From Candidatus Omnitrophota bacterium (GTDB taxonomy: Bacteria > Omnitrophota > Gorgyraeia > Gygaellales > Profunditerraquicolaceae): 64,000 nt of DNA. The notes under the pieces are model-generated. The model was not told the origin of the DNA and did not search any database. It saw nothing but the letters and a program-made list of their open reading frames with translations. Below, one piece after another: positions 1,580 through 28,307 of the stretch (positions are counted from its first letter, which is position 1; the number at the start of each line of letters is the position of its first letter). Made by a program: the position numbers and the translations under genes. Location of the stretch: contig JAQTQJ010000007.1 in assembly GCA_028712255.1 (NCBI GenBank), forward strand, positions 10,425 to 74,424. Direction: 5' to 3'.

Positions 1580-2554
1580 ATGAAAATAGATAAGAAAATA
1601 GCTGTTTTTTTATATTATCATATGTTACGCATCCGTATGATAGAGGAGAAAATCGCCCAGCTCTACGCAGAACAACAGATGCGTTGCCCTGTTCATTTAT
1701 GTATTGGTCAGGAGGCAATTGCTGTGGGTGTTTGCGCTAACCTCTTGAAGAAAGATTATCTTTTAAGCAATCATCGTTCACATGGGCATTATCTGGCTAA
1801 GGGTGGTAATTTAAAACAGATGCTCGCCGAAATTTACGGCAAATCTACTGGATGTTCTAAGGGTAAAGGCGGGTCAATGCACTTAGTCGATTTAACGGTA
1901 GGCATATTAGGCACGACTCCTATTGTTGGTGGAATTATACCTGTAGCCACCGGAGTTGCTTTTGGCACGCAGATGAAGGAAAAAGATAATCTAACGGCTG
2001 TCTTTTTTGGGGATGCGGCGACAGAGGAGGGTGTATTTTTTGAGAGTTTAAATTTTGCTTCTTTAAAAAAACTACCGGTACTTTTTATCTGTGAAAATAA
2101 TTTTTTCTCGGTTTATTCTCCTTTAGCTGTGCGCCAACCTAAAGAAAGGGATAATTTAGCTTTAGTTCGATCATTGGGTATTAAGGGCAGTAAAGGTGAT
2201 GGTAATAATGTATTTGAGGTATATGCATTGGCAAAAAAAGCAGTAGCAGATATCCGTAAAGGAAAAGGGCCTTATTTTCTTGAGTTTGATACCTATCGCT
2301 GGAGAGAGCACTGTGGGCCTAATTTCGATAATGATTTAGGGTATAGGACAGAAGAAGATTTTTTAAAATGGAAAAAGAAATGTCCGCTTGATTCATTAGA
2401 AGATAAATTGATCAAAGGCAACATTTTGAGTCTTTCGCGGATTGAAAGTTTTAAGCGAAATATCCAGGCAGAGATAAATCGCGCAATCAGTTTTGCCAAG
2501 AATAGCCCTTATCCGGAAACTGAAGAGATGCTCTCGGATGTGTATGCAAAATAA
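1580..2554 (+). CDS. ThDP-dependent dehydrogenase E1 component alpha subunit-like
   Basis: Carries 'HLCIGQEAIAVGV', 'HRSHGHYLAKGGN' and a ThDP-binding 'GDAATEEGVFFESLNFA' segment typical of pyruvate/acetoin dehydrogenase E1 alpha. Confidence 0.8.
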   Translation: MKIDKKIAVFLYYHMLRIRMIEEKIAQLYAEQQMRCPVHLCIGQEAIAVGVCANLLKKDYLLSNHRSHGHYLAKGGNLKQMLAEIYGKSTGCSKGKGGSMHLVDLTVGILGTTPIVGGIIPVATGVAFGTQMKEKDNLTAVFFGDAATEEGVFFESLNFASLKKLPVLFICENNFFSVYSPLAVRQPKERDNLALVRSLGIKGSKGDGNNVFEVYALAKKAVADIRKGKGPYFLEFDTYRWREHCGPNFDNDLGYRTEEDFLKWKKKCPLDSLEDKLIKGNILSLSRIESFKRNIQAEINRAISFAKNSPYPETEEMLSDVYAK

Positions 2555-2619
2555 GTAAAAATTAGTGTCATTGCGAGGGAGCAAAGCGACCGAAGCAATC
2601 TCTAATCAACTTTTAATCT

Positions 2620-3675
2620 ATGAATAGACAAATAAATTTAGCGCAAGCAGTTCTTGAAGCAACAGCCCAATGTATGCAGGATGATGGCTCAGTTTATATT
2701 ATGGGCCTGGGTGTTACCGACCCTAAAGGGGTTTTTGGAACTACTCTTGGGCTTGAAAAAAAATTCGGCGCAAAAAGAGTTTTGGATATGCCGGTAGCTG
2801 AAAACGGAATGACTGGTATTGCTATTGGCTCTGCTTTAGTTGGAATGCGCCCTATCTTGACTCACCAACGTATTGATTTTATGCTTTTATCCCTGGATCA
2901 GATAATCAATAATGCCGCAAAATGGCACTATATGTTTGGTGGAAAAATGAAGATACCGATAGTGATCCGTTTGTTAGTGGGCCGCGGGTGGGGGCAAGGG
3001 CCGCAGCATTCGCAAAGCCTGCAGGCGCTTTTTGCGCATATTCCGGGTTTAAAAGTAGTTATGCCGGCAACTCCCTATGATGCTAAAGGTTTATTGGTTT
3101 CTGCCGTTGAGGATAATAATCCGGTTATTTTTATTGAACATCGCTGGCTGCATAATACTTTGGGTAATGTCCCTTTAGAAAAATACAGGATTCCTTTAGG
3201 CAAGGCAAAAGTTGTAAAGGAGGGCAAGGATCTGACGATTATTTCTTCATCCTATACGACATTAGAAGCAATAAAGGTAGCTGAACTGTTTAAAAATGAA
3301 GGTATAAATATTGAAGTTGTAGATCTAAGGACAATTAAACCGCTGGACGAACTTACGATTATAAAATCGGTGAAGAAAACCAGAAGGTTAATTGTAATTG
3401 ATAGTGCCTGGAGGAGCTTTTCTGTTGCCTCAGAGATATTGGCACAGGTTGCAGAAAAAGCGTATCAGTCTCTCAAGTGTGCGCCAGTACGCATTACCTT
3501 TCCGGATGCTCCGACTCCGACCGGCTGGGCATTGTCTAATCATTATTATCCTCAGATTGAGGATATAATAAATACTGTTAAAAAAATGTTAAAAATTAAT
3601 AAACCACAACGATCAGAGAAAGTTTTAGATAAACCCTTGGACGTTCCTGATGCGACTTTTAAGGGGCCTTTTTAA
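2620..3675 (+). CDS. ThDP-dependent dehydrogenase E1 component beta subunit-like (transketolase pyrimidine-binding and C-terminal domains)
   Basis: 'GIAIGSALVGMRPI' and overall E1-beta/transketolase-C architecture. It lies directly downstream of the E1 alpha-like gene. Confidence 0.8.
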   Translation: MNRQINLAQAVLEATAQCMQDDGSVYIMGLGVTDPKGVFGTTLGLEKKFGAKRVLDMPVAENGMTGIAIGSALVGMRPILTHQRIDFMLLSLDQIINNAAKWHYMFGGKMKIPIVIRLLVGRGWGQGPQHSQSLQALFAHIPGLKVVMPATPYDAKGLLVSAVEDNNPVIFIEHRWLHNTLGNVPLEKYRIPLGKAKVVKEGKDLTIISSSYTTLEAIKVAELFKNEGINIEVVDLRTIKPLDELTIIKSVKKTRRLIVIDSAWRSFSVASEILAQVAEKAYQSLKCAPVRITFPDAPTPTGWALSNHYYPQIEDIINTVKKMLKINKPQRSEKVLDKPLDVPDATFKGPF

Positions 3676-3678
3676 ATT

Positions 3679-5169
3679 ATGTTAATTAAGCCTAAACAAA
3701 TAAAGAAGATACTTTTAACTCAGCCTAATTATGCCTGGCTTTCTAAGAGGACCTGGCAATTTCCTCCCTATACTTTGTGCTTGTTGAAAGCGATTATTAA
3801 AGATCAGACTAAGGTGGTAGTATTTGATCCAAATTTTAAGAATTTGTCTGAACAGGAAGCAAGGGCTTTTCTACAAAAAACCAAGCCCGATTTGGTCGGA
3901 GTAAGCTCGATTTCAACGGAATATTTTAATGTTACCCGGCATACGATAGCCCTTATTCGTAAGTGCCTACCGAAAGCTGTAATTGTTTTAGGTGGTGTAA
4001 TTCCTACGGTTATGATTCAAGAAGCGATGAAAGATAAAAATATTGATTATTGGATTATGGGAGAAGGAGAGCAATCATTTCCGTCTTTGATTGAGAAAAT
4101 ACGCTCAGACTCTAAAGATCTTACCGGTATTAGCGGCCTGGCGTATTGGCAGGGAAATAAGCCAGTCATCAATAAAGTGGAATTTATTACTGATCTTGAC
4201 GCAATTCCTTTTCCTGATTATTCGGCTGTCGTTGGCGCCTCCCTGCAGGATTATGGCAATATCAAATTTAAATATGCTCCGGGGCTCCTGGCGCGTAATT
4301 ACCCTGCGGCAGTTACGATTACTTCCAGAGGCTGTCCTTACAGGTGCATATTTTGCGCAGGAAGGACTGTAAGCGGCCAGAAAGTGCGCTTTAGAAGCGC
4401 GGAAAATGTGCTTAAAGAAGTTGATAGTTTATATAAACAGGGAATTCGGGAAGTTATTTTCTTAGACGACCATTTTTTAGCCAATCGAGGCCGGGCAATG
4501 AAAATAATGAATGGTATCTTAAATAACTATAAAGGCTTTAGCTGGAAGTGCGTTAATGTCACTGCCTGGCTGTTGGATGAAGAAATCTTAAATCTCATGT
4601 ATAAAAGCGGCTGCACGCATATAACTGTTTCTATTGAATCCGGGAATCAGGATGTGCTTACGAATATTGTCAAAAAACCGATCAGGCTGGATATTATTCC
4701 GGAAAAACTAACCTTGGCTAGGTCAATTGGTTTTGATGTAATTGCAAATTTTGTTATCGGTTTTCCGGGGGAAACCTGGGAGCAGATTCGGGATACATTT
4801 AAATATGCCCAGAAGCTTAATGTCGATATGGTAAATTTTCATATTGCTACTCCATTACCGAAAACCGAATTAATGGATGTTTGTTTAGAGAATAAATTAT
4901 TACCCGATGACTATGTAAAAAATATTTCTAAATATTCCGGTTACGGGAAAGGGTTAATTACAACTAAAGAATTTACTCCTTTTGAACTGGAAGTTTTGAG
5001 GTCTTTTGAATGGGACAGGATAAATTTCTCATCTCCTGAAAGAAGGGAAAAAATTGCCAGGATGCATGGGATAACTATGGAAGAATTAGGAGATTGGCGG
5101 ATAAATACAAGGCGTAACCTTGGCGTAAACAGCAAGGTTAAGAACATAATGTCGGCTGCAAAAAGATAG
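3679..5169 (+). CDS. B12-binding domain radical SAM enzyme
   Basis: N-terminal cobalamin-binding-like Rossmann region ('VGVSSIST', 'VLGGVIPT'). Radical SAM CxxxCxxC motif 'SRGCPYRCIFC'. Confidence 0.85.
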   Translation: MLIKPKQIKKILLTQPNYAWLSKRTWQFPPYTLCLLKAIIKDQTKVVVFDPNFKNLSEQEARAFLQKTKPDLVGVSSISTEYFNVTRHTIALIRKCLPKAVIVLGGVIPTVMIQEAMKDKNIDYWIMGEGEQSFPSLIEKIRSDSKDLTGISGLAYWQGNKPVINKVEFITDLDAIPFPDYSAVVGASLQDYGNIKFKYAPGLLARNYPAAVTITSRGCPYRCIFCAGRTVSGQKVRFRSAENVLKEVDSLYKQGIREVIFLDDHFLANRGRAMKIMNGILNNYKGFSWKCVNVTAWLLDEEILNLMYKSGCTHITVSIESGNQDVLTNIVKKPIRLDIIPEKLTLARSIGFDVIANFVIGFPGETWEQIRDTFKYAQKLNVDMVNFHIATPLPKTELMDVCLENKLLPDDYVKNISKYSGYGKGLITTKEFTPFELEVLRSFEWDRINFSSPERREKIARMHGITMEELGDWRINTRRNLGVNSKVKNIMSAAKR

Positions 5170-5172
5170 AAT

Positions 5173-6012
5173 ATGGAGAGAAAAAAAGAAGTTAAAAAGA
5201 ATGTTTTTATCCTAGGAATAGGCTCAGATATAGGAGCTCAGCTGGCATTGCGTTATCTGAATCAGGGATATGCTGTTATGGGAACTTATAGGCACAGGGG
5301 CAGCGTAAGGAGCCTGGCGCAAAAAGGTATTTGTCTTTTTCAGTGTGATGTCGCAAAAAAGCCAGAGATAAAAGAATGTATTAATAAAATTAAGAAAACA
5401 GCTAAGCCTTGGGATATTTTTATTTCTTGTGTAGGGACAATGGAGCCTATTGGTAAATTTTTTGATGTTAATTTTAATGAATGGGAAAATTCTATAATTG
5501 TTAATTCCACATCGCAACTGCGTTTTCTTCATGAATTATATCCTTATAGGCGTAAAAATACCTTAAATCATGTTGTGTTTTTCGCAGGAGGCGGAACGAA
5601 CAATCCTTTTACCAATTATTCGGCTTATTGTGTTTCAAAAATTATGCTGATTAAGATGTGCGAACTTCTGGATGATGAAAATAATGACCTACATACGTTT
5701 ATCGTTGGACCGGGAGTAGTAAAGACCAAGATCCATGCAGAGACGCTGCGGAATCGCTTGGCAGCCGGATCTAATTACAGCCGGACAAAACAATTTTTAA
5801 AATCGAATATCCTGGGAACTGACTATAAGGATATCTTTGACTGCATTAATTGGTGTATTGATCAGGGCCGTGAAGTTTCCGGAGGCCGCAATTTTTCTGT
5901 TGTTCACGATGCCTGGAAGAAGAGAGGGGAATCTTTTGTGCGACAGCTACGAGCTGATTCCAATAAATTTAAATTAAGAAGATTTAAGAACAGTAATAAT
6001 AAAGGAGGATAA
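5173..6012 (+). CDS. Short-chain dehydrogenase/reductase family protein
   Basis: 'ILGIGSDIGAQLA' glycine-rich motif and a YxxxK motif ('YCVSK'). Confidence 0.6.
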   Translation: MERKKEVKKNVFILGIGSDIGAQLALRYLNQGYAVMGTYRHRGSVRSLAQKGICLFQCDVAKKPEIKECINKIKKTAKPWDIFISCVGTMEPIGKFFDVNFNEWENSIIVNSTSQLRFLHELYPYRRKNTLNHVVFFAGGGTNNPFTNYSAYCVSKIMLIKMCELLDDENNDLHTFIVGPGVVKTKIHAETLRNRLAAGSNYSRTKQFLKSNILGTDYKDIFDCINWCIDQGREVSGGRNFSVVHDAWKKRGESFVRQLRADSNKFKLRRFKNSNNKGG

Positions 6013-6013
6013 A

Positions 6014-6715
6014 GTGAAAAGTAGTAAAGTTAATAAATCAGCTAAAAAACTCTATAAAGAAGGAACAGGATACCAGTTTGATACCCAGGAGCTAAGGTTG
6101 GGACCCTGGACATCATACAGTTTGATTAATGACCCAAAGCATATGTGTTTTGTACTCTCTAGATATAAATTCTGCGCGAAAATTTTAGAAGGTAAAAATA
6201 CTGTTATGGAGATAGGCTCAGGAGATGGTTTTGGCTTGCCGATTATAGCTCAGGCAGTAAAAAAGATATACGCAGTGGACTGGGATAAACGTTTACTCGA
6301 GGGTAATGCTGGACGTCTCAAACACTTAAAGAATGTAGAATATCTACATGTGGATTTTAATAAAGAATCTCCCAGCATTAAGGTGGATGGAATATACCTT
6401 ATTGATGTAATTGAGCATTTAGACAAAAAAACTGAAAAAGTATTTTTGGATAACATCGCAAAATGCCTTAAGCCCACGGGAGTTTTAATTATTGGTACGC
6501 CTAACGTAACTGCTTCTGAGTATGCTACTCCTAGAAGTAGCATACAACATATTAATTTAAAAAGTAATAAAACTTTGCGAGAACTAATGGAGAAGTATTT
6601 TGAGAATGTATTTATGTTTGGAATGAATGATGAGGTTTTACATACCGGTTATGCTCCGATGTGCCATTATCTCTGGGCAGTGGGAGCAGGTTTACGTTTA
6701 AAAACAGGAAAATAA
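6014..6715 (+). CDS. Class I SAM-dependent methyltransferase
   Basis: GTG start preceded by RBS 'aaaggagga'. Motif I 'VMEIGSGDGFG'. Confidence 0.7.
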   Translation: MKSSKVNKSAKKLYKEGTGYQFDTQELRLGPWTSYSLINDPKHMCFVLSRYKFCAKILEGKNTVMEIGSGDGFGLPIIAQAVKKIYAVDWDKRLLEGNAGRLKHLKNVEYLHVDFNKESPSIKVDGIYLIDVIEHLDKKTEKVFLDNIAKCLKPTGVLIIGTPNVTASEYATPRSSIQHINLKSNKTLRELMEKYFENVFMFGMNDEVLHTGYAPMCHYLWAVGAGLRLKTGK

Positions 6716-6717
6716 CG

Positions 6718-8499
6718 ATGAAGCTTTCGGATTATGTAGCCAAATTTTTGGTAGGACAAGGCATAAAACATGTATTTGTTATTACCGGCGGAGCATCTGC
6801 GCACCTGATTGATTCTATTGCTAAGACTCCTGGGATAAAATATATTTGTCCGCAGCATGAACAAGCAGGGGCAATGGCTGCCGATGCCTATGCTAGAGTT
6901 ACTGGAAAATTAGGAGTGGCAATAGCCACCAGCGGACCGGGTGCCACCAATATGCTTACCGGGGTCTGTTGTTCATTCTATGATTCGATTCCGACGCTCT
7001 ATATCACTGGACAGGTTTCAACCTTTCGTTCAAAAGGAAATGCCGGAATAAGGCAGTTGGGTTTTCAGGAAACAGATGTTACTGCAATATTTAGGCCTAT
7101 CACTAAATATGCCGTAAGAATCAGGGATCCTAAAGAGATCAGGTATGAATTTGAAAAAGCTGTTCATATTGCGCATTCAGGAAGGCCGGGGCCAGTATTA
7201 ATAGATATACCCGATAATTTACAAAGAATGGATGTCCAACCAAGATTATTAAAACCATTTATACCTGAAGATGGTAGAAATGATTCTCGTCGTTTGGATT
7301 CGCAGGTAATAAAGTGCATAGATTTACTTCGGCATGCAAAGAGGCCGGTTGTTATTCTTGGTTGGGGGATAAATCTTTCCGGCGCAGAAAAAGAAGTTTT
7401 AAAATTTGTGGAGAAGTCAGGATTACCGGTAGCGCCTACCTGGGGCCTAAGATATCTATTTCCGGCTAGCCATCCGCAATTAATCGGCGCATTCGGTACT
7501 CACGGCACACGTTACGGTAATTTTGCGGTACAAAATGCCGACTTTATTTTATCTATCGGGGCGCGCCTGGATACCCGTCAGGCAGGTTCACCTCACTGGA
7601 CATTTGCCAGAGGTGCTAAAAGGATAGTTGTTGATATCGATCCTTGCGAGCTGAAGAAATTTAAGAAATTAAAAATGAAAATAGATTTGGAAGTCAATGC
7701 GGATGCCAAGGATTTTCTAGAGCTGCTTAACCGTAAAATTACCGGTATAAAACTCCCCCAGATATCGGCTTGGCAGAAGAAAATTGCTCAATGGAAAGAA
7801 AAATTTCCTGTTTTCAGGAAGGAATATTTTAAAGAGAGCGGTGTAAATCCGTATGTTTTCATAAAAATGCTTTCCGACCAGGCTTTACCGGGAGATGTTA
7901 TTTTTGCTGATACTGGTTGTAGTCTAGCTTGGGTTTTGCAGTCTTTTGAATTCAAAAAAGGGCAGAAGCTTTTTAGCGCTTTTAACAACACGCCGATGGG
8001 ATATTCTTTACCGGCAAGTATCGGCGCCTCTTTTGCCATTAATAAAAAACCCGTGATCTGTGTAACCGGAGACGGTGGTTTACAGATGAATATTCAGGAG
8101 CTCATAACGGCTCTAAAGCATAAACTCCCAATAAAAATCTTTCTTTTTAATAATCACGGTTATGGCATGATTCGTCAAACTCAAGACCAGTGGTTTTGTT
8201 CGCGATATGAGGCCTCTACCATAGAAAGCGGGCTAGCTTTCCCGGATTTTATTAAGGTAGCCAAAGCCTACGGTTATAAAACAGTTAATATATTAAAAGC
8301 AAAAGATATGCATAAAGGTATTAGTGAAACTCTGCATTCAAAAGGCCCTGTTTTGTGTAATATCGAGATGCACTTAGGCCATAGCGTAATTCCACAGGTT
8401 AAATTCGGAAGGGCCCTGGAAGATGGGGAGCCTTTGTTGGAAAGAAAGCATTTTTTTGAATGTATGATTGTTAAGCCGCATAAAGCATCGCTTAAATAG
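6718..8499 (+). CDS. ThDP-dependent acetolactate-synthase-large-subunit-like enzyme (YerE-like candidate)
   Basis: N-terminal 'ITGGASAHLIDSI' pyrimidine domain and the ThDP GDG...N motif 'VTGDGGLQMNIQEL'. ATG 6718 is chosen over the upstream in-frame extension from 6661, which would overlap the previous gene. Confidence 0.8.
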   Translation: MKLSDYVAKFLVGQGIKHVFVITGGASAHLIDSIAKTPGIKYICPQHEQAGAMAADAYARVTGKLGVAIATSGPGATNMLTGVCCSFYDSIPTLYITGQVSTFRSKGNAGIRQLGFQETDVTAIFRPITKYAVRIRDPKEIRYEFEKAVHIAHSGRPGPVLIDIPDNLQRMDVQPRLLKPFIPEDGRNDSRRLDSQVIKCIDLLRHAKRPVVILGWGINLSGAEKEVLKFVEKSGLPVAPTWGLRYLFPASHPQLIGAFGTHGTRYGNFAVQNADFILSIGARLDTRQAGSPHWTFARGAKRIVVDIDPCELKKFKKLKMKIDLEVNADAKDFLELLNRKITGIKLPQISAWQKKIAQWKEKFPVFRKEYFKESGVNPYVFIKMLSDQALPGDVIFADTGCSLAWVLQSFEFKKGQKLFSAFNNTPMGYSLPASIGASFAINKKPVICVTGDGGLQMNIQELITALKHKLPIKIFLFNNHGYGMIRQTQDQWFCSRYEASTIESGLAFPDFIKVAKAYGYKTVNILKAKDMHKGISETLHSKGPVLCNIEMHLGHSVIPQVKFGRALEDGEPLLERKHFFECMIVKPHKASLK

Positions 8500-8508: not shown

Positions 8509-9168
8509 TTGAAAAGAGAAATAAACCTATTAGATTCACATCCTAAAACTGTCCGTGATTATGATAAGCGCGCCAAAGAAAAAACTCCGGAAATTGTTGC
8601 TATAGCTAAGCAATTTGGAAAGGATTTTTTTGATGGTGATAGGAAGTGCGGTTATGGCGGGTATAAATATGATGGGCGCTGGAAATCGGTAGTAAAAAGA
8701 TTCAAAGATTATTATCACTTGGCAGATAACTGTGCAATCCTGGATATTGGATGCGGGAAAGGTTTTATGCTTGCTGATTTTAAAGAACTTATGCCGCAGG
8801 CAACTATTGCCGGAATAGATGTTAGTGAATACGCAATTGAAAACGCTATGCCGCAAGTAAAACCGTATTTAGAGATCGCTAGCGCTGAGAAGTTACCGTA
8901 TCCTGACAAATCTTTCGATCTGGTTATTTCTATTAACTCGATTCATAATCTTCCACTTCAGCGGCTTAAAATTGCTTTAAAGGAGATTCAGCGTGTCTGT
9001 CGCGGGGATAGTTATATCACTATCGATGCCTGGCGTAATGAAATGGAACGCGATAATTTATTTAAATGGGTGCTTACTGCTGAAACGATGATGCATGTTG
9101 ATGATTGGAAAAAGCTGTTTTTAGAAACTGGTTATACCGGTGACTACTGGTGGTTTATTGCAGATTGA
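8509..9168 (+). CDS. Class I SAM-dependent methyltransferase
   Basis: TTG start after RBS 'aggagg'. Motif I 'ILDIGCGKGF'. Confidence 0.7.
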   Translation: MKREINLLDSHPKTVRDYDKRAKEKTPEIVAIAKQFGKDFFDGDRKCGYGGYKYDGRWKSVVKRFKDYYHLADNCAILDIGCGKGFMLADFKELMPQATIAGIDVSEYAIENAMPQVKPYLEIASAEKLPYPDKSFDLVISINSIHNLPLQRLKIALKEIQRVCRGDSYITIDAWRNEMERDNLFKWVLTAETMMHVDDWKKLFLETGYTGDYWWFIAD

Positions 9169-10516: not shown

Positions 10517-10522
10517 AAATAA

Positions 10523-20403: not shown

Positions 20404-21647
20404 ATAACTCGTTACATAAGACAATCGAAGTTTGCCGTATATGCGGCAGTAATAGGATAGAAACATTTCTTGAGCTTGGGTTGCAACCTCCGGCTAATAG
20501 CCTCAGGAATAATTTAGTTGAAAAGCTTCCGCTAATTCCGCTTTCTCTTTGCCGTTGCTCAGAATGTTCAACTGTGCAGTTGACTGAAACAGTTGAGCCA
20601 GAGCATCTTTTTAAACATTATGTTTGGGTCACAGGAACATCATCTACCGCTAAAAATTACGCTAATTTATTCTGCCAGGAGGCTTGCAAAAGGTTAAACA
20701 CTAAAAGCCCGTTTGTTGTTGAGGTTGCAAGCAATGACGGAACATTTTTAAAAGTATTTAAAGATAAAGGTTTTGAAGTCCTTGGGGTAGATCCTGCCGA
20801 AAATATAGTTAAGATGGCTAATGATAGCGGTATTCCTACAATTGCTGCATTTTTTGGCGAAAAAATTGCTAAGAAAATAGTCTCTGATAAGAGGAAAGCG
20901 GATTTTATTTTTGCGCGTAATGTTATTCCTCATGTTGCCAATGTGCATGATGTTGTTGCCGGCATGAAGCATTGTTTAGCTGCCGATGGAGTAGGAGTAA
21001 TTGAATTTCACTATGCTGGGGTTATTGTTGACGGGCTTCAATACGATTCGATTTACCACGAGCACCTTTTTTATTTTTCGTTAAAAAGTATGCAGTATTT
21101 ACTCAAGAAACATGGTTTGCAAGCTTTTGATTTGTTAGAAAGCCCGATTAGCGGCGGATCTTTAGCGCTTTATTTTTCTCATAAAGGCGCGAATAAGCCT
21201 ATTGAGCAAAGATTAAAGCAGAAAATTGATGCTGAAGAGAAGAGTGGGTTAAATAGCAAAGAAGTTTGGGATAAATTTTCTAAAGATTGCCAGAAGCATA
21301 AAAATAAATTTGTCGAACTCATTCTAAAGGAAAAATCAGAAAATAAGAGATTGGTTGGGTATGGCTCTTCTGCAAGGAGTTCTACTTTGCTTAACTATTG
21401 TAACATTAATAAAGAACATTTAATTTGTATAGCTGATCAGAATCCATTAAAACACAATAAGTATGCTGCCGGTTCCGATATACTCATTATTTCTCCCGAG
21501 GAGGCTTTTTCCAAAGGGCCTGATATAATTGTTTTACTGGCGTGGAATTTTAAAACAGAGATAATTTCACTTTTAAAAAATAAGTATCATTTTTGCGGAA
21601 AAGTAATTGCGCCGTTTCCCAATTGCCCGCAGATGCTACAACTTTAA
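20400..21647 (+). CDS. NDP-hexose/heptose C-methyltransferase (TylC3-type: Zn-binding N-domain plus C-methyltransferase domain)
   Basis: N-terminal 'CRICGSN...CRCSECS' zinc-binding domain followed by the SAM motif 'VVEVASNDGTFL'. Length of ~415 aa is typical of this family. Confidence 0.75.
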   Translation: MNNSLHKTIEVCRICGSNRIETFLELGLQPPANSLRNNLVEKLPLIPLSLCRCSECSTVQLTETVEPEHLFKHYVWVTGTSSTAKNYANLFCQEACKRLNTKSPFVVEVASNDGTFLKVFKDKGFEVLGVDPAENIVKMANDSGIPTIAAFFGEKIAKKIVSDKRKADFIFARNVIPHVANVHDVVAGMKHCLAADGVGVIEFHYAGVIVDGLQYDSIYHEHLFYFSLKSMQYLLKKHGLQAFDLLESPISGGSLALYFSHKGANKPIEQRLKQKIDAEEKSGLNSKEVWDKFSKDCQKHKNKFVELILKEKSENKRLVGYGSSARSSTLLNYCNINKEHLICIADQNPLKHNKYAAGSDILIISPEEAFSKGPDIIVLLAWNFKTEIISLLKNKYHFCGKVIAPFPNCPQMLQL

Positions 21648-21649
21648 AT

Positions 21650-22189
21650 ATGAAATTCTACGAACAAAAAATAAAAGGTGTTTGGATTATTGAGGCTGAG
21701 CCTTTTAAGGATAGCCGCGGGATGTTTTTTAGGCATTTCTGCCAGAAAGAATTTTTAAAAAACGGCTTAGAATCTAAGATCCTGCAGACTAATGTTTCCA
21801 AGAATAATCAAAAATATACTTTACGGGGCATGCATTATCAGCTCAAACCTTTTGGCGAGCACAAAACAATGTTATGCGTCTCTGGGGCCATTTATGACAT
21901 TATTGTTGATTTAAGGCCCGAATCGGAAACATTTTTAAAATGGATATCCGTTGAATTGAATTCTCAAGCTCCTTTGAGTTTGCATATTCCTGCCGGATGC
22001 GCTAATGGATATCTTACTTTAAAGGACGATACTACTATTCTTTATTATATGTCTGAATTTTATTCGCCAGATGCTTATCGTGGTTTCCGTTATAATGATA
22101 AGCTATTTGATTTTAAATGGCCTGCCGAACCGGCGATTATTTCGGACAAAGACCGTACTTATCCTGATTTTGATCCTAGGGGTTGCTGA
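21650..22189 (+). CDS. dTDP/GDP-sugar 3,5-epimerase (RmlC-like cupin)
   Basis: 'GVWIIEAEPFKDSRGMFF', 'LRGMHYQ' and 'YDIIVDLR' are RmlC-family hallmarks. ATG 21650 is chosen so as not to overlap the upstream gene. Confidence 0.8.
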   Translation: MKFYEQKIKGVWIIEAEPFKDSRGMFFRHFCQKEFLKNGLESKILQTNVSKNNQKYTLRGMHYQLKPFGEHKTMLCVSGAIYDIIVDLRPESETFLKWISVELNSQAPLSLHIPAGCANGYLTLKDDTTILYYMSEFYSPDAYRGFRYNDKLFDFKWPAEPAIISDKDRTYPDFDPRGC

Positions 22190-23409
22190 TGGATATCCCT
22201 AAACAAGCTGTAATTCTTTGCGGAGGATTGGGGGAGCGTTTGCGTCCTCTAACTGATTTAGTGCCTAAGCCAATGGTTCTGGTTAATGGCGCACCTTTTT
22301 TATGGTATCTTTTGGAGCAGCTTAAAGATAATGGTATTAAAGAAGTTATTTTGTTAACCGGGTATCGGGGAGAACAGATCTGTGAATATTTTAAAGACGG
22401 CAACCAGCTAGGGCTATCTATACGATATTCTCACGGGCCTGTAGAGTGGGAAACCGGGAGGCGCCTTTTTGAAGCCAAGGAGTTACTCGATGAACATTTT
22501 TTACTTTTATACAGCGATAATTTTTTACCTTTTAACTTAAAAAAAATCGTAAAGTTTTATAATGAACAGAAAAAGTTGTTGAGTTTTATTGTGCAACCTA
22601 AAGAGAAAGGCAATATCCGTATGGGTGAGGCAGGAGTTGTCCAGGTTTATGATAAAACTCGTTCTGCTGCAGGTTTGGGCTTTGTTGAATTAGGATATAT
22701 GATCGTAAACAAGAAAGTATTTGAATTTTATAGCGATAAAGATGTTAGTTTCTCTGATATAATCAACAAATTGGTTTCGGTGGGCCAAGTGGCTGGTTTT
22801 ACTGTTTTGGATACTTATTATAGTATTTCAGATGTACAACGCTTAAGGATGATGGAGAAATATCTCCAACCCAAGAAGATATTACTTATTGATAGAGATG
22901 GAGTGATCAATAAGAAGGCGCCAAGAGGTGAATATATTGGTTCTTGGGAAGATTTCTCTTTTATCCAAGAAAATATCGAAGGAATGAAAAAGCTGAGTCA
23001 GGCAGGTTTTTCATTTATCGTTATCTCCAATCAGGCCGGTATTGCTCGAGGTATGGTGACGGCTGAAGCTGTTGAATTTATTCATCAACGGATGAAAGAG
23101 GCATTGAATGGTGAAGGAATAAGTATTTTAGATATTTATCTTTGTCCGCACCATTGGGATGAAAAGTGTTTCTGTCGTAAACCTGAGCCGGGGCTTTTCT
23201 TTGAGGCTGCGCGTAAGTGGAGTTTCCGCTTGGATAAGGCATATTTTATAGGAGATGATCCCAGGGATTGTCAGGCGGCTTATCGAGCTGGTTGCGGATG
23301 TGTTTATACTGGCCAAAACGATGATTTAAAGGATTTAGGCTTTGAAGAAAAACCTGAATTTGTAGTTAAGAATTTAAACGAAGCAGTACCTTTTTTGGAG
23401 AAAATATGA
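22183..23409 (+). CDS. Bifunctional sugar-1-phosphate nucleotidyltransferase (HddC-like) / D,D-heptose 1,7-bisphosphate phosphatase (GmhB-like)
   Basis: N-terminal 'AVILCGGLGERLRPLT..PKPMV' NTP-transferase motif. C-terminal HAD 'LLIDRDGVINK', 'ISNQAGIARG' and GmhB Zn-site 'CPHHWDEKCFCRKPEPG'. Confidence 0.75.
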   Translation: MLMDIPKQAVILCGGLGERLRPLTDLVPKPMVLVNGAPFLWYLLEQLKDNGIKEVILLTGYRGEQICEYFKDGNQLGLSIRYSHGPVEWETGRRLFEAKELLDEHFLLLYSDNFLPFNLKKIVKFYNEQKKLLSFIVQPKEKGNIRMGEAGVVQVYDKTRSAAGLGFVELGYMIVNKKVFEFYSDKDVSFSDIINKLVSVGQVAGFTVLDTYYSISDVQRLRMMEKYLQPKKILLIDRDGVINKKAPRGEYIGSWEDFSFIQENIEGMKKLSQAGFSFIVISNQAGIARGMVTAEAVEFIHQRMKEALNGEGISILDIYLCPHHWDEKCFCRKPEPGLFFEAARKWSFRLDKAYFIGDDPRDCQAAYRAGCGCVYTGQNDDLKDLGFEEKPEFVVKNLNEAVPFLEKI

Positions 23410-24398
23410 TTATTTCAAGGACTCCTTTTCGGATTAGTTTTGCTGGAGGCGGGACCGATCTGCCGGAATTTTATTTAAAAGATGAAGGCCAGGTAATTTC
23501 TACCGGCATAGATAAGTATATTTACGTGGCGGTTAAACGCCAGACAGCTATCTCAGAATATAAATTCCGGATAAATTGGAGCAAGGTGGAGTTTAAAGAT
23601 AAGATTGAGGATATTGAGCATCCGATTGTCCGTGAAGCCTTAAAGATGATGGATATGGATATCCCGCTTGAAATTTCCACATTTGCGGATATTCCTGCAA
23701 ATACCGGATTGGGATCTTCTAGCTCTTTTGCTGTCGGATTATTACATGCGCTTTTTGCACTTAAAGGAAAAATGGTTACTAAAGGTGTGTTAGCTGGTAT
23801 GGCCTCGCATCTTGAAATCGATAAGTTAAAGCGCAAGATCGGTAAGCAGGATCATTATGCTGCTGCATATGGCAGCCTTAATATTTTTACTTTTCATACT
23901 GATGGAACTGTTTCTGTGGATCCGGTTTTTTACAAGCCTGAAATAAAAGAATCTTTGGAGAGCCATCTAATGCTGTTTTATACTGCCATAAAAAGAGATG
24001 CTCATAAAATTTTACGCGTTCAACACATGAAGACGCAAGAAAAACGCCATGTGCTTGCCGAGATGAAAAGTCTGGTGGCTCCCTTCGGGGAGTTGCTTTC
24101 TTCCGGAGCCAATCTACGGGAGTTTGGCCGCCTCCTGCATCGCGGTTGGTTGCTTAAGAAAAGCATTACGGATGAAATCTCATCTAAGGAAATCGACGGC
24201 TATTATGACCGCGCTATGGCAGCTGGAGCCCTTGGGGGAAAACTTTTAGGCGCAGGCGGGGGAGGATTTTTACTTTTCTTTGTCGAGCCGAAAAAGCAGA
24301 AAGCAGTGGCTGGTGCGCTTTCGAGCCTTTATCGCTTGCCGTTTAAATTTGAAAACGCAGGCACAAGGATTACTTATTATGACCAATCTCTGGTTTAG
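23406..24398 (+). CDS. GHMP-family sugar kinase (HddA-like D-glycero-D-manno-heptose 7-phosphate kinase)
   Basis: 'MIISRTPFRISFAGGGTD' N-terminus and GHMP ATP-binding motif 'PANTGLGSSSSFAVGLL'. Confidence 0.75.
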   Translation: MIISRTPFRISFAGGGTDLPEFYLKDEGQVISTGIDKYIYVAVKRQTAISEYKFRINWSKVEFKDKIEDIEHPIVREALKMMDMDIPLEISTFADIPANTGLGSSSSFAVGLLHALFALKGKMVTKGVLAGMASHLEIDKLKRKIGKQDHYAAAYGSLNIFTFHTDGTVSVDPVFYKPEIKESLESHLMLFYTAIKRDAHKILRVQHMKTQEKRHVLAEMKSLVAPFGELLSSGANLREFGRLLHRGWLLKKSITDEISSKEIDGYYDRAMAAGALGGKLLGAGGGGFLLFFVEPKKQKAVAGALSSLYRLPFKFENAGTRITYYDQSLV

Positions 24399-24432
24399 TT
24401 TATTAGTTGTTTGTGGATAAAGTATAAATTAT

Positions 24433-25536
24433 ATGAATTTTTCTAAATTAAAAATTGGTTATGTCCCTTTTGGTAAGCCGAAATTTCATCCTTTTGATTT
24501 AAGGAATTTTGTTTATTATGCGAATAAACGGAATATTAATTTTGAGATAGCGAATCCGAACGATGAATACGATGTTATCGTATTAACTCCCGGAGTTGAT
24601 GTGAGTGCTTGGAGCCGTTTTCCCAGAGGGCGTACGAAAATAATTTATATATCTGTTGATGCTTACCTGGCTGTACCGCGATTTGATCTTCGGGGTGCCT
24701 TAAGAGGGCTGGCTAAGTTTCTTGCGGGAGAACATAAATTTTTAAAACTTAATTATGTTAATGCCATTAAGGATATGTGTAAGAGGGCTGATGCTGTTAT
24801 CTGTGCGACTTTAGAACAGGAGAAAGATATCCAGATGTATTGCAAGAATACACATATTATTCTGGAGTTTCATCAGAATGTATTACGTGATGTTAAGACT
24901 GATTATGTTGCCAATGGTACGATCAATTTAGTTTGGGAAGGTAGGCCTGAAACTGTTAGAAGCTTAAAACAGATTAAGGAAGTTTTAGTTAAACTTAATA
25001 AGAAATATCCATTAATTTTGCATGTCATCACGGATCTTGAATATGGAAGATATATGAGTAAATTCAAGAGAATCTCAATTGTAGACGAGATAAAACAAAT
25101 TTTTGGGCACCGCTATTATGCTAATACTGTAAGCGGTAATAAATCTTTGGTTCATTTATATCAGTGGAACAGGGAATTGTTGTCTACTTTGATAACCGCT
25201 TGTGACATAGCCGTTATTCCTTTAAACGACACTGATGCTTTGATGCATGGAAAACCTGAAAATAAGTTAGTATTTTTCTGGAGAGCAGGTTTACCTACTG
25301 TTGTCTCAGCTGCACCGGCATATGTGCGCACAATGGAAAAGTGTAAATTACCGCTTTATTGTAGGAATGAAGAAGATTGGTATAAGAATCTGGAAAGATT
25401 AATTCTAGATCCGGAAACTAGAAAACTAGCTGGTATTCAGGGTAAAGAGATTGCGGATACATTATATAGTGAAGAGCAGTATCTGAAGCAGTGGGATAAA
25501 CTGTTTCAGAGTGTATTGGGAGATCGTTTATCATGA
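24433..25536 (+). CDS. Hypothetical protein (possible GT-B-fold glycosyltransferase)
   Basis: Clear ORF in cluster context. The weak C-terminal 'FFWRAGLPTVVSAAPAY' resembles a GT-B nucleotide-sugar-binding helix. No firm family assignment. Confidence 0.35.
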   Translation: MNFSKLKIGYVPFGKPKFHPFDLRNFVYYANKRNINFEIANPNDEYDVIVLTPGVDVSAWSRFPRGRTKIIYISVDAYLAVPRFDLRGALRGLAKFLAGEHKFLKLNYVNAIKDMCKRADAVICATLEQEKDIQMYCKNTHIILEFHQNVLRDVKTDYVANGTINLVWEGRPETVRSLKQIKEVLVKLNKKYPLILHVITDLEYGRYMSKFKRISIVDEIKQIFGHRYYANTVSGNKSLVHLYQWNRELLSTLITACDIAVIPLNDTDALMHGKPENKLVFFWRAGLPTVVSAAPAYVRTMEKCKLPLYCRNEEDWYKNLERLILDPETRKLAGIQGKEIADTLYSEEQYLKQWDKLFQSVLGDRLS

Positions 25537-26423
25537 AAATATTTATGACGGGTTGTGGTAGTTTTATCGGCAAAGAAGTTTTACGGCTTGCTAAAGTTAA
25601 GGGGATTCAGGTAACCGGAGTGGATTTAGTTGAGACAGGCCAGGATGGATGTTCGGTTGCGGATATTCGTTCTCCGAAAATAGCCGAAAAGATACCTTTA
25701 GATGTTGATGCTGTTATTCACCTTGCGGCTTTGTCTCGCGATGCAGATTGTCGGAATAAAGCTTATTCGTGTTTTGATGTCAATGTTATGGGAACACTAA
25801 ATCTAATTGAGGCGGCTCAGGGTAGAGGAGTAAAGCAGTTTATTTTTGCTTCGTCTGAATGGGTATATGACCGCTTTGAAGAGGGCATAGCTAAAAAAGA
25901 GGAGGATGTTATCGATATAGCTGGCCTTACTTCCGAATATGCCTTATCGAAATTAGTTAGCGAAGCAAATCTTCGCCAAAAATATCAGCGTGGATTTTGT
26001 CCGGTAACTATTTTAAGATTCGGTATTGTTTATGGGCCGCGTAAGGATAACTGGTCAGCGGTAGAGTCTATTTTTAATGCGGTTAGTACTCAAGATGAGG
26101 TAACTATTGGTTCTTTGAAAACCGGACGCCGCTTCGTTCATGTTTCCGATATTGCATTAGCGGTAATTGCCGCAATCGGATTAACCGGTTTTGAGATTAT
26201 TAATATTCAGGGGAGGCAGATGGTTACTCTCGGCGATATTATAGAAACTACTAAGTCGCTGCTTAATAAAAATCCAAAGGTAATCCAGCGTACTCCTGAA
26301 CAAATAAGCCTACGTACTGTTAGTGATGTTAAAGCCAAGCAATTGCTTAAGTGGCGTGCAGAAATTAGCTTGCAGGATGGGCTTAAATCAGTGTGTGATT
26401 TTTTAGGAACAAAGATTGCTTAA
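25533..26423 (+). CDS. NAD-dependent epimerase/dehydratase
   Basis: 'IFMTGCGSFIGKEV' and 'YALSK'. Confidence 0.7.
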   Translation: MKIFMTGCGSFIGKEVLRLAKVKGIQVTGVDLVETGQDGCSVADIRSPKIAEKIPLDVDAVIHLAALSRDADCRNKAYSCFDVNVMGTLNLIEAAQGRGVKQFIFASSEWVYDRFEEGIAKKEEDVIDIAGLTSEYALSKLVSEANLRQKYQRGFCPVTILRFGIVYGPRKDNWSAVESIFNAVSTQDEVTIGSLKTGRRFVHVSDIALAVIAAIGLTGFEIINIQGRQMVTLGDIIETTKSLLNKNPKVIQRTPEQISLRTVSDVKAKQLLKWRAEISLQDGLKSVCDFLGTKIA

Positions 26424-26439
26424 ACTAGAAAAGGTGAAA

Positions 26440-27366
26440 ATGGCTATTAAGCTTGATAAAAGGGTTGCTCAGGAAGTTTTACGTATCCGTTTTAGTCAAA
26501 TGATTGTTAATCAGGGCAATAAAGACAAGCAATTTAAATGTCCTGTGCATCTGGCATTTGGACATGAAGCTATAGCTGTAGCTGTTTCTGCCTGTATGAA
26601 GGATAAGGATGGTTTGTTATTGACGCACCGTAATATTCATTACAATTTGGCTAGAAGCAGGTCTCTGAAAAAAAAGATCGATGAATATCTTTGTAAAGAA
26701 ACCGGTGAAGCTAACGGACAATTGGGTTGTATGAATCTGTATAACGAAGATGCGGGAGTTTTATATACATCGAGTATTCTAGGCAATCAAATGGCTGTGG
26801 CAACAGGAGTGGCTTTAGGTAATCGTGTTAAAAAATCAAACGGAGTAGCAATTGTTGTTATCGGTGACGGGGCTATTGAGGAAGGAATATTCTATGAGAG
26901 CCTGGTCATGATGAAGACATATCGCCTTTCATCTTTGATCATTGTTGAGAATAACGGCTGGTCACTGGCGACTCAGATCCATGAGCGCCGCTGTGATATA
27001 AAACTTGATCTATACGCATCTGCTTTGGGTATACCTTACTATCGCCTGGAGGGCAATGATGTTTATGGGTATATCCGGTTATTGGAAGAGGCACGTTCAA
27101 AAGCCCTGACTGATGAGACCCCGATTATTGTGGAGGTTGCTTTACATACATTGGGAGATTGGGTTATGAAGACTGAAGAGCATTCGGCTGGTAAATATAT
27201 TAATTATCATGCCGGTGCGGCTCCTAACGTTGGGCTTATTGATTGGCCGGTTATCGAAGAAAGCGATTTTGATCCTGTACATGTTTTGAAAAAATACTTT
27301 GAATTTAGTTTTCTAAAAGAGTTGGCTGAGAAAGTCTTTAAGGGCCTACGTGAGGAATTAGCATGA
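26440..27366 (+). CDS. ThDP-dependent dehydrogenase E1 alpha subunit-like (second copy)
   Basis: 'CPVHLAFGHEAIAVAV', 'THRNIHYNL' and 'VIGDGAIEEGIFYESL' (ThDP motif). ATG 26440 has an RBS 'aaggtg'; the TTG at 26416 is an alternative start. Confidence 0.75.
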   Translation: MAIKLDKRVAQEVLRIRFSQMIVNQGNKDKQFKCPVHLAFGHEAIAVAVSACMKDKDGLLLTHRNIHYNLARSRSLKKKIDEYLCKETGEANGQLGCMNLYNEDAGVLYTSSILGNQMAVATGVALGNRVKKSNGVAIVVIGDGAIEEGIFYESLVMMKTYRLSSLIIVENNGWSLATQIHERRCDIKLDLYASALGIPYYRLEGNDVYGYIRLLEEARSKALTDETPIIVEVALHTLGDWVMKTEEHSAGKYINYHAGAAPNVGLIDWPVIEESDFDPVHVLKKYFEFSFLKELAEKVFKGLREELA

Positions 27367-28307
27367 ATTATATTACGCATATCAATGCTTTAATTAGATC
27401 AAGGGTTGCTGAAAAATCTCCTCTAGTAATGTTTGGACAAAATATCGCAGCGGGTAGCTGTATTAGTGGTTTGACAAAGGGGCTTAAAAGCGATGGTGGC
27501 CATTATGTCTTGAATACTCCGAATTGTGAAAACACTCTTGTGGGAATGGGGTTTGGATTGATGTTAAACGGAGTTTCTTCAATATTTTTCATGAAACAAC
27601 AGGATTTTTTATTACTGGGAATAGATCAACTCGTTAATACTTATAATATTATGCGTTGTCGTAAAATTGAGAGTTCATTTACGATTGTTAATGTAATCGT
27701 GGATAGCGGTTATGAAGGGCCACAATCTTCACTGAATAATTTCTATGATTTTTGTTCTATAGCCCGTATTCCAGGCTATGCTGTTTCCAATAAACATGAT
27801 TCTGAGGTTATCATAGAGAAGCATTTGATAGCTCCAGGATTTCGTATTATCGGTATTAGCCAACGGTTGTGCCGACAGGAGATTATACAAGTTGATGAAG
27901 AGGTTTCTTTTGATAAGAATGGGGAGATATTCCAGTATTCTGACGGTGGAGATCTTTCGGTGGTTTGTTTTAACTATGCGTTCCCTCAGGGCTTGGAGTT
28001 ATGCAATAATTTCAAGAAACATAATATAAATGCCTCTTTATTTTCTGTTAATGCCATACTCCCTGTGGATTGGAAGAAGATCCTGGATAATGTAAAGATG
28101 ACTGGTAAACTCGTAGTCCTTGATGATTCAAAAAGCGTAAATTCACCCGCGCAACATTTTGTTATTGCTGCCCAACAGGAAATTGTGCCGGGCAATGTAG
28201 TATATTTTTCTCGTAAGGATAAGGATTTAATCCTCGGTCCGAATGCCGATCAGTTTACTATTGATCATGGCGTTGTGATGTCAAAATTAGGATTTAATTC
28301 TAAATGA
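27363..28307 (+). CDS. ThDP-dependent dehydrogenase E1 beta subunit-like (second copy)
   Basis: Transketolase pyrimidine/C-terminal domain architecture. The start overlaps the upstream gene (ATGA). Confidence 0.7.
   Translation: MNYITHINALIRSRVAEKSPLVMFGQNIAAGSCISGLTKGLKSDGGHYVLNTPNCENTLVGMGFGLMLNGVSSIFFMKQQDFLLLGIDQLVNTYNIMRCRKIESSFTIVNVIVDSGYEGPQSSLNNFYDFCSIARIPGYAVSNKHDSEVIIEKHLIAPGFRIIGISQRLCRQEIIQVDEEVSFDKNGEIFQYSDGGDLSVVCFNYAFPQGLELCNNFKKHNINASLFSVNAILPVDWKKILDNVKMTGKLVVLDDSKSVNSPAQHFVIAAQQEIVPGNVVYFSRKDKDLILGPNADQFTIDHGVVMSKLGFNSK

Follow-up and report, generated by a model that had tools for sequence, protein, structure and literature searches.

What would a surface-glycan locus do with three sets of enzymes that use thiamine diphosphate (ThDP), two of them resembling the E1 alpha and beta subunits of 2-oxoacid dehydrogenases? 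The question is raised by a 64,000-nucleotide stretch of Candidatus Omnitrophota DNA (assembly GCA_028712255.1, contig JAQTQJ010000007.1, positions 10,425 to 74,424 of the forward strand), called the window below. An initial annotation, made from the sequence alone, had described two E1 pairs and one enzyme resembling both YerE and the large subunit of acetolactate synthase (ALS), and had taken them for three independent systems that attach two-carbon branches to keto-sugars. Each of the three ThDP systems was found where that annotation had placed it, give or take a few codons, with scores far above chance, but the three are not independent of one another. They form two conserved cassettes, at 1-11578 and 19360-29251, each built around a stand-alone E1-type ThDP enzyme. 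By analogy with characterised enzymes, we moderately favour the view that both E1 pairs and the YerE-like enzyme act as E2-independent carboligases, which would add C2 (or longer) acyl branches to nucleoside diphosphate (NDP)-keto-heptose-type sugars.

Relatives of the first and second E1 pair are called family 1 and family 2. Family 1 was sampled by a metagenome scan that yielded 80 loci, and its gene counts come from the 29 loci of at least 13 kb. For family 2, one genome per species was scanned, and its counts come from 37 loci of at least 14 kb from different species. The ThDP genes of the window are:

1580..2554, + strand: E1 alpha of pair 1, the ThDP diphosphate-binding subunit (Pfam E1_dh 212 bits, E 1e-62)
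2620..3675, + strand: E1 beta of pair 1 (Pfam Transket_pyr 121 bits and Transketolase_C 114 bits)
6718..8499, + strand: predicted YerE/JanthE-like ThDP carboligase with the ALS large-subunit fold (Pfam TPP_enzyme_N, M and C with 116, 117 and 144 bits)
26416..27366, + strand: E1 alpha of pair 2 (Pfam E1_dh 113 bits; found in 37/37 family 2 loci)
27363..28307, + strand: E1 beta of pair 2, very diverged (Transketolase_C 25 bits, below the Pfam cut-off), with a start that overlaps the alpha stop (ATGA)

Three ThDP enzymes in two conserved cassettes

Both pairs have the E1 fold, a GD(G/A)...NN ThDP motif and the Glu that activates ThDP, and they share 36% identity in alpha and 26% in beta. In pair 1, the alpha subunit carries a GDAATEEG...ENN motif and a conserved His in YRWREHC, and the beta subunit retains the equivalents of Glu59 (the activating residue) and His128, numbered as in the E1 beta of G. 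stearothermophilus from the alignment, where His128 lies in elHsds of 1w85_B. Alignments show that family 1 retains both active-site His residues. Beta 1 also has an extra C-terminal segment of ~25 residues, encoded at 3601-3675 and ending in ...DVPDATFKGPF, which follows a family pattern of ...DVPDxxFxGPF. The final GPF occurs in 75/75 complete homologues (drawn from L070-L149, L002, L004, L006 and L013) and the full motif fits 70 of them, and the reference pyruvate dehydrogenase (PDH) and acetoin dehydrogenase E1 beta sequences lack this tail. In the alpha subunits, both glycan-type families carry the ThDP motif GD(G/A)xxEEG (window 1997-2020 and 26881-26904), compared with GDGxxNQG, SQG or GRG in four reference E1 alphas.

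Pair 2 is much more diverged. The alpha 2 gene probably starts at ATG 26440, the ninth codon of the reading frame at 26416, judging from the sequence. Its product carries GDGAIEEG...ENN and a family-specific insertion of ~17 residues before the conserved His in NYHAG, a region that reads LGDWxMKTEEYPEGKxINYHAG in the family. Beta 2 matched the E1 beta of T. thermophilus (1um9_B, E 4e-17 with phmmer), and its AlphaFold model (pLDDT 87) gave its best structural matches to E1 beta structures of PDH and branched-chain ketoacid dehydrogenase (BCKDH), with TM scores of 0.72-0.79, and lower scores to split transketolase (0.67-0.69), 1-deoxy-D-xylulose-5-phosphate synthase (DXS) and transketolase. A split transketolase was also considered as an identity for pair 2 and was ruled out, as alpha 2 scored 113 bits on E1_dh vs 33 on DXP_synthase_N, and 65 bits against an E1 alpha in the Protein Data Bank (PDB) vs 33 against 6yak.

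The open reading frame (ORF) of the ALS-like gene, called mechanically, opens at GTG 6661, within a gene that stops at 6715, and ATG 6718 directly after that stop is likely to be its true start. The best PDB matches of the protein were 8rph (343 bits), which is JanthE, a YerE-like enzyme, and 5ahk (331 bits), which we take to be PpYerE; plant and yeast acetohydroxyacid synthase (AHAS) followed with 301 and 271 bits. Structures exist for two YerE-like enzymes, PpYerE and JanthE. By these scores the protein is nearer to YerE-like enzymes than to true AHAS, as had been predicted, with a modest margin. It reached 435 bits on the NCBIfam model acolac_lg, below the cut-off of 538, and a Pfam scan of the window ORFs found no AHAS small subunit or ilv genes around it. 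A short-chain reductase adjoins the gene within the glycan cluster. The protein has the canonical GDG motif where JanthE has CDG.

The Pfam scan, which covered all window ORFs of at least 100 aa, placed the ThDP genes among short-chain dehydrogenases/reductases (SDRs) of epimerase and dehydratase types, reductases, methyltransferases, nucleotidyltransferases, kinases and glycosyltransferases. The epimerases and reductases of NDP-sugars that the initial annotation had seen around them are thus borne out in the window, and related sugar-tailoring neighbourhoods recur across many phyla. Besides the ThDP genes, cassette 1 contains:

1..617, + strand: PfkB kinase part of an HldE-like protein with swapped domains, truncated at the window start (Pfam PfkB; frame open to base 3; NCBIfam HldE domains are the best matches, below cut-off)
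635..1576, + strand: extended SDR immediately before E1 pair 1, with a proposed role in C4 oxidation to the keto-sugar acceptor (Pfam Epimerase 111 bits)
3679..5169, + strand: B12-binding radical SAM enzyme in a variable slot (Pfam)
5173..6012, + strand: classical SDR (adh_short), candidate ketoreductase for the acyl branch, the YerF role (Pfam; 12/29 family 1 loci)
6014..6715, + strand: S-adenosylmethionine (SAM) methyltransferase (Pfam; position shared with L004 and L150)
8509..9168, + strand: SAM methyltransferase, the most constant accessory gene (Pfam; 21/29 family 1 loci, median 59% identity)
9150..9578, + strand: NUDIX hydrolase (Pfam; also in Azospirillum L013 and in L150)
9599..10516, + strand: RmlD-like reductase (Pfam RmlD_sub_bind; rmlD 95 bits, below cut-off)
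10523..11578, + strand: Zn-dependent alcohol dehydrogenase (Zn-ADH) (Pfam; 18/29 family 1 loci, median 54% identity)

The genes that precede the window start were viewed in an Omnitrophota relative, L150, which is 86% identical. At the position of the truncated gene, L150 encodes a 513-aa protein with CTP_transf_like and PfkB domains, and upstream of it GmhA and an RmlB-like SDR. Across the 29 long loci, HldE-like proteins were found in 24, relatives of the SDR at 635 in 24 and GmhA in 19. The recurrent neighbourhood consists of a GmhA-like isomerase, the HldE-like protein, an extended SDR, E1 alpha, E1 beta and one variable tailoring enzyme, together with a classical SDR, methyltransferases, the Zn-ADH and often the ALS-like enzyme. 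L150 and Syntrophales L004 match the window in gene order, and the cassette also occurs in L151, a contig from the candidate phyla radiation (CPR), in Nitrospirae L002 and in Schekmanbacteria L006. The slot at 3679 holds an aminotransferase, or an SDR and a C-methyltransferase, in other lineages (variation seen in L002, L004, L006, L013 and L150). Relatives of alpha 1 with 64-88% identity are common in metagenome-assembled genomes (MAGs) of Omnitrophota, Nitrospirae, Syntrophales, Deltaproteobacteria and Schekmanbacteria, and public databases label family 1 genes as E1 of PDH or acetoin dehydrogenase. Among cultured bacteria, Azospirillum oryzae KACC 14407 carries cassette 1 on a plasmid (L013), in the order SDR, SDR, HldE-like protein, SIS, SDR, E1 alpha, E1 beta, two DegT aminotransferases, radical SAM enzyme, NUDIX and glycosyltransferases; it was the only close family 1 member in the plasmid collection.

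The ALS-like gene belongs to the same cassette. It was found in 11/29 long family 1 loci with a median identity of 60%, and in 0/37 long family 2 loci. Pair 1 and the ALS-like gene keep the order of the window in L150 and L004, and in L151, which is of Nomurabacteria type, the ALS-like gene lies immediately beside E1 alpha and E1 beta. The adh_short gene adjoins the ThDP enzymes in L004, L150 and L151. Because pair 1 and the ALS-like enzyme co-occur in one conserved cassette, we assign them to one pathway, which leaves two cassettes where three separate systems had been counted.

Cassette 2 surrounds pair 2 with the following genes:

19360..20403, + strand: extended SDR, first gene of the cassette (Pfam; 33/37 family 2 loci)
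20400..21647, + strand: NDP-sugar C-methyltransferase with TylC3-type architecture (Methyltransf_13 and Methyltransf_14; 26/37)
21593..22189, + strand: RmlC-like 3,5-epimerase, a cupin (dTDP_sugar_isom 188 bits; 32/37)
22183..23409, + strand: HddC-like sugar-1-phosphate nucleotidyltransferase fused to a GmhB-like phosphatase (Pfam; 26/37)
23406..24398, + strand: GHMP kinase, HddA-like, of the heptose-7-phosphate kinase type (Pfam; 33/37)
24433..25536, + strand: 367-aa protein without a Pfam match (homologue in 1/37 family 2 loci, Omnitrophota L018)
25533..26423, + strand: extended SDR upstream of pair 2, proposed keto-sugar maker (Pfam; 36/37, median 54% identity; best PDB match 6zl6, 70 bits)
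28304..29251, + strand: extended SDR downstream of pair 2, candidate reductase (Pfam; 25/37)

GmhA was present in 20/37 family 2 loci, and the window order from 19360 to 28307 was reproduced in Omnitrophota L018 and on a Methylophilaceae chromosome (L062). The scan found family 2 in 52 species, with hosts among Omnitrophota, Desulfobacteraceae, Nitrospirae, Planctomycetes, Acidobacteria, Chloroflexi and Bacteroidota, Alpha- and Betaproteobacteria (including Magnetospirillum sp. SS-4 and Methylophilaceae), many CPR lineages, Thaumarchaeota and Methanosarcinales. The plasmid collection held no close family 2 member. Relatives of beta 2 number at least 1,195 in a database clustered at 90% identity, and an exhaustive profile search with beta 2 over 50%-identity representatives returned 130 clusters at E<=1e-30. 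NCBI labels beta 2 and most of these relatives 'hypothetical protein'.

Several features of the cassette 1 loci stand beside this pattern. The HldE-like protein has its nucleotidyltransferase domain at the N-terminus and PfkB at the C-terminus, the reverse of the order in E. coli HldE, and examples are found at L150 7495-9036, L013 11774-13309, L004 497-2023 and window 1-617. Split-gene transketolases (Transketolase_N plus Transket_pyr/Transketolase_C) occur in Nitrospirae L002 (3539-5324 and 18031-19757) and Schekmanbacteria L006 (15156-16858), where they adjoin SDRs and methyltransferases in addition to the E1 pair, a third ThDP enzyme class for glycan loci of this kind. To our knowledge, a split transketolase has so far been proposed in sugar pathways only for miharamycin and amipurimycin of Streptomyces. 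A HicA/HicB toxin-antitoxin pair lies inside the Syntrophales cassette 1, between the methyltransferases and the Zn-ADH (L004 14978-15417).

Predicted substrates and chemistry

The initial annotation had expected deoxysugar-type acceptors, and this expectation held in part: the sugar-nucleotide context stands, and the associated genes are GmhA/HldE-like in cassette 1 and HddA/HddC-GmhB-like in cassette 2, which is a heptose-type set and not that of the 3,6-dideoxyhexoses of yersiniose. Best NCBIfam matches in cassette 2 were HddA (149 bits vs a cut-off of 600), GmhB (150 vs 178) and HddC (102 vs 300), and in cassette 1 HldE (117-153 vs 521) and GmhA (90-123 vs 209), all below cut-off. From these gene sets, the acceptors are likely to be heptose-type nucleotide sugars.

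Three bodies of earlier work bear on the reaction. In the aldgamycin, kosinostatin, kibdelomycin and related pathways, E1 alpha/beta pairs of the alphaKADH2 class take C2 units from pyruvate and transfer them to keto-sugars; the kibdelomycin pair KbDH-alpha/beta has been tested in vitro, and reduction, transamination, methylation or oxidation of the branch follows (PMC12247030). In lipopolysaccharide (LPS), the enzymes that branch CDP-4-keto-sugars are YerE-like, and some of them accept longer 2-oxo acids made by aldolases (PMC9306805). In Campylobacter, GDP-heptose is converted to a 4-keto form by a C4-dehydrogenase or a 4,6-dehydratase and then passes to RmlC-like epimerases and C4-reductases (PMC10680097). 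The make-up of the cassettes matches the chemistry of these alphaKADH2, YerE and Campylobacter pathways, which is why we propose carboligation. The donor, the acceptor, the branching position and the order of steps that follow are those we infer for it.

In cassette 1, the GmhA/HldE-like set would activate a heptose-type sugar as a nucleotide sugar, and the SDR at 635 would oxidise it to an NDP-keto-sugar. The best solved relative of this SDR is 6vo6/6vo8 (115 bits), of which 6vo6 is presumably Cj1427. Pair 1 would decarboxylate a 2-oxo acid on ThDP, most likely pyruvate, and join the resulting acyl-anion equivalent to the ketone of the sugar, so that a tertiary alcohol with a C-acetyl branch is formed. 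Modification of this branch could follow, by the classical SDR or, in other lineages, by an aminotransferase, B12 radical SAM enzyme or methyltransferases. The YerE-like enzyme may perform a second carboligation in the same pathway, at another keto position or at the new side-chain ketone, with a donor that is possibly a longer 2-oxo acid.

In cassette 2, HddA, the GmhB-HddC fusion and probably a GmhA encoded outside the cassette would produce a GDP-heptose-type sugar, which the SDR at 25533 would convert to a 4-keto intermediate, perhaps also a 6-deoxy one. The RmlC-like epimerase and the C-methyltransferase are predicted to act on the activated keto intermediate, pair 2 would add the C2 branch, and the flanking SDR would reduce that branch.

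The SDRs at 635 and 25533 may be either dehydrogenases or 4,6-dehydratases: their active-site motifs were ambiguous by eye, and PDB matches indicate C4-oxidising SDRs in general. Septacidin was considered and dropped as a precedent for an ADP-4-keto-heptose, as SepI, a GMC flavoenzyme, works once the heptose has been transferred to adenine.

Gene context fixes the pathway and not the reaction, and the most serious alternative is that the ThDP enzymes work in glycan pathways but do something other than acyl branching of a ring ketone. They could decarboxylate a sugar-derived 2-oxo acid, cleave an acyloin or ketol, shorten or lengthen a chain by transketolase-like transfer of a side chain, or extend it by carboligation to a sugar aldehyde. 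E1-type enzymes are known to cleave acyloins, as in the acetoin-cleaving Ao:DCPIP oxidoreductase (PMC12247030), split transketolases occupy similar positions in L002 and L006, and the HpcH aldolase, HMGL-like enzyme and NeuB of the window all make 2-oxo acids. Set against this, every characterised E1 alpha/beta pair found in a sugar cluster without E2/E3 is C2-branching (PMC12247030). In both cassettes, an SDR of the C4-oxidising type directly precedes the E1 pair and a reductase follows it, which is the layout of YerE/YerF and of aldgarose-type pathways, and the ring oxygen at C5 of a pyranose would make a transketolase-type C5-C6 cleavage awkward. We give a different reaction about a one-in-four standing, clearly behind acyl branching of a keto-sugar but a possibility to reckon with.

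Stand-alone enzymes or dehydrogenase components

For both E1 pairs, membership of a 2-oxoacid dehydrogenase complex would imply E2 and E3 partners. No lipoyl, E2 catalytic (2-oxoacid_dh) or E3 (Pyr_redox) domain was detected by Pfam in the window ORFs. The window and related loci were also searched by tblastn with three E2 and two E3 proteins, taken from annotated E1-E2-E3 operons on plasmids (Sphingobium pdhA-pdhB-E2-lpdA, Burkholderia acoXABC with lipoate ligase, and L. fermentum pdhA-E2-lpdA). The queries found each other in these control loci, but the best match in the window had an E value of 0.027, and none reached E<=1e-5 in 146 related loci, including the 29 long family 1 and 37 long family 2 loci. 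The initial annotation's prediction that no E2/E3 would be found nearby was thus confirmed.

Sequence comparison separated both families from reference E1s, again as predicted. In neighbour-joining (NJ) trees with 200 bootstraps, families 1 and 2 were each set apart from the references, in 199 and 200 of 200 replicates for alpha and in 195 and 200 for beta; the references were four annotated PDH/acetoin E1s, making this a weaker test than a phylogeny against characterised sugar-branching E1s. Three of the four subunits also fell below NCBIfam cut-offs for PDH E1, namely alpha 1 (314 vs 394 bits, PDH_E1_alph_y), alpha 2 (138 vs 394) and beta 2 (51 vs 321). Family 2 is 19-22% identical to the reference E1s and 35-100% identical within itself.

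The beta subunits of family 2 differ at a residue tied to complex function. The Glu59 equivalent was present in 52/52 family 2 betas, but the His128 equivalent was Ser in 51/52 and Ala in 1/52; an earlier alignment with different sampling had 1/23 bearing His. The alpha His is kept in pair 2, and GDG...ENN for ThDP and Mg is kept across sampled family 2 alphas, with one END variant. In PDB entries 1ols and 1olx, the titles refer to the human BCKDH counterparts of this His pair and tie them to reductive acylation. The beta His is said to act as a proton donor, in work attributed to Fries et al. 2003 and Wynn et al. 2003. With the Glu present and the beta His replaced, family 2 has kept the residues for forming the ThDP-enamine and lost one that is specific to its transfer to lipoamide.

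Several points weigh against the proposal that these enzymes branch heptose-type sugars. The reaction of both E1 families and of the YerE-like subfamily is one we infer from gene context and analogy. Because all heptose assignments fall below curated cut-offs, the sugar may be a relative of heptose and not heptose itself, and we know of no glycan with a C-acyl-branched heptose. The search for E2/E3 covered the window and related loci, and such genes could lie elsewhere in the genome. Pair 1 in particular is an ordinary E1 by sequence: beta 1 passes the NCBIfam cut-off for the PDH-beta subfamily (332 vs 321 bits), and the identity of family 1 to the reference E1s (34-41%) is close to that among the references themselves (36-45%). 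Since both His residues are kept in pair 1, the case against a dehydrogenase role for it comes from gene context only.

These last points lend themselves to the reading that pair 1, pair 2 or both belong as true E1 components to a PDH, acetoin or branched-chain complex, with E2/E3 encoded elsewhere and an incidental position in the glycan locus; pair 1 has all canonical catalytic residues, and its public annotation says as much. We nevertheless judge this very unlikely. E2/E3 were found in 0/146 loci while the controls were positive, the sugar-nucleotide synteny is conserved from CPR bacteria to Alphaproteobacteria and archaea, and the pairs sit inside glycan loci even in CPR bacteria with tiny genomes. 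The separate clades (NJ bootstrap 195-200 of 200), the missing reductive-acylation His of beta 2 and the conserved extra tail of beta 1 argue in the same direction. Least probable of all is that pair 2 is a degenerate and inactive E1 relic kept as a scaffold or regulator, since, for all its very low similarity to known E1s, its sub-threshold Pfam score and its lost active-site His, the conserved ThDP/Mg motif and activating Glu, the many invariant residues shared within the family across bacteria and archaea, and the confident structure model fit an enzyme under selection.

The wider locus and comparison with known systems

By its Pfam content, the window is a very large surface-glycan locus, a single uninterrupted array of ~60 genes, all on the + strand, with a G+C content of 34-40%. 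It encodes many extended SDRs, methyltransferases and glycosyltransferases, Wzy-like and Wzx-like proteins, an AsnB homologue and a NeuB-type nonulosonic-acid module. The segment 11579-15429, which separates cassette 1 from the SDR that follows, holds two large ORFs without Pfam matches (862 aa and 421 aa), the larger of which resembles a multi-pass membrane protein in its N-terminal half. Six B12-binding radical SAM enzymes (3679-5169, 36708-38156, 39045-40472, 51795-53300, 60359-61813 and 61881-63380) and two of the SPASM type (34859-35926 and 43791-44852) were counted, a density unusually high for one glycan locus that suggests many C-methylations or other radical modifications of sugars.

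The nonulosonic-acid type module at 40563-47474 comprises a short DegT aminotransferase (322 aa), a PseB-like SDR, a PIG-L deacetylase, a CMP-transferase, a SPASM radical SAM enzyme, WbqC, NeuB and a GT28-like protein. A further group at 53332-58402 encodes an HpcH/HpaI-type aldolase, an HMGL-like protein fused to an MptE-like domain, an LdpA-like Fe-S protein, a HAD phosphatase and a second CMP-transferase. These genes could make and activate an unusual 2-oxo acid sugar; alternatively, by analogy with the aldolases of the ErwE pathway, they could supply longer 2-oxo acid donors for the ThDP enzymes.

Until now, C-branching of sugars by ThDP enzymes has comprised one LPS enzyme type, YerE, and the E1-like pairs of actinomycete antibiotic pathways. 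The broadest form of our proposal is that two widespread, unrecognised lineages of E1-type carboligases, stand-alone and lipoyl-independent, define new pathways that branch nucleotide-heptoses, leading to undescribed C-acyl- or hydroxyalkyl-branched (and C-methylated) higher-carbon sugars in the envelopes of Omnitrophota, CPR bacteria, Nitrospirota, Proteobacteria and ammonia-oxidising archaea. We hold this joint claim to be evenly balanced. If it is true, ThDP-dependent branching would be common and conserved in the making of surface glycans across many bacterial and archaeal phyla, most of them uncultured, and heptose-type sugars would be among the sugars branched, with products new to structural glycobiology. 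Annotation would need correction as well, both of the 'hypothetical protein' label on family 2 beta and of the PDH/acetoin labels on family 1, which would inflate the central metabolism deduced for MAGs of CPR bacteria and Omnitrophota, and the two families would be new ketone-accepting carboligases for tertiary-alcohol biocatalysis. The Azospirillum oryzae KACC 14407 plasmid for family 1 and Magnetospirillum sp. SS-4 for family 2 offer cultured entry points.

Among known systems, the alphaKADH2 enzymes (AlmDI/DII of aldgamycin, AviB1/B2 of avilamycin, and KbDH) are alike in having an E1 pair without E2/E3 beside keto-sugar SDRs in a sugar cluster, and in a follow-up slot that, as in cassettes 1 and 2, holds a ketoreductase, aminotransferase, methyltransferase or radical SAM enzyme. 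The likeness of families 1 and 2 to them is one of architecture and context, and family 2 lacks the beta His. The alphaKADH2 examples come from Actinobacteria and act in secondary metabolism on 2,6- or 4,6-dideoxyhexoses, whereas the cassettes described here belong to surface-glycan loci with heptose-type genes in many other phyla. YerE-like enzymes (YpYerE, PpYerE, ErwE, MMAR_2332 and JanthE) share the three-domain ALS/pyruvate oxidase (POX) fold with the window enzyme, and its reductase neighbour recalls the pairing of YerE with YerF. YerE works alone on CDP-3,6-dideoxy-4-keto-glucose, whereas the window enzyme shares its cassette with an E1 pair and heptose-like activation genes.

With the E1s of PDH, acetoin dehydrogenase and BCKDH, both pairs share their subunit make-up (alpha and beta of the heterotetramer type) as well as the ThDP motif and activating Glu. 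Unlike the PDH and acetoin loci used as controls, they have no E2/E3 or lipoate ligase nearby, and their genes lie within sugar cassettes. The logic of cassette 2 resembles that of the GDP-heptose pathways of Campylobacter jejuni (HddA/GmhB/HddC, Cj1427 or DmhA, Cj1430/MlghB and Cj1428/MlghC), with a kinase, phosphatase, nucleotidyltransferase, 4-keto-making SDR, RmlC-like epimerase and SDR reductases in common. The Campylobacter pathways have neither a ThDP enzyme nor a C-methyltransferase, and their products are unbranched heptose epimers and deoxyheptoses. Compared with all of these systems, four features are new: an E1 pair and a YerE-like enzyme joined in a single cassette, the strongly diverged and mis- or unannotated E1 lineage of family 2, the hosts in uncultured phyla, CPR bacteria and archaea, and the apparent heptose-type substrate class for surface glycans.

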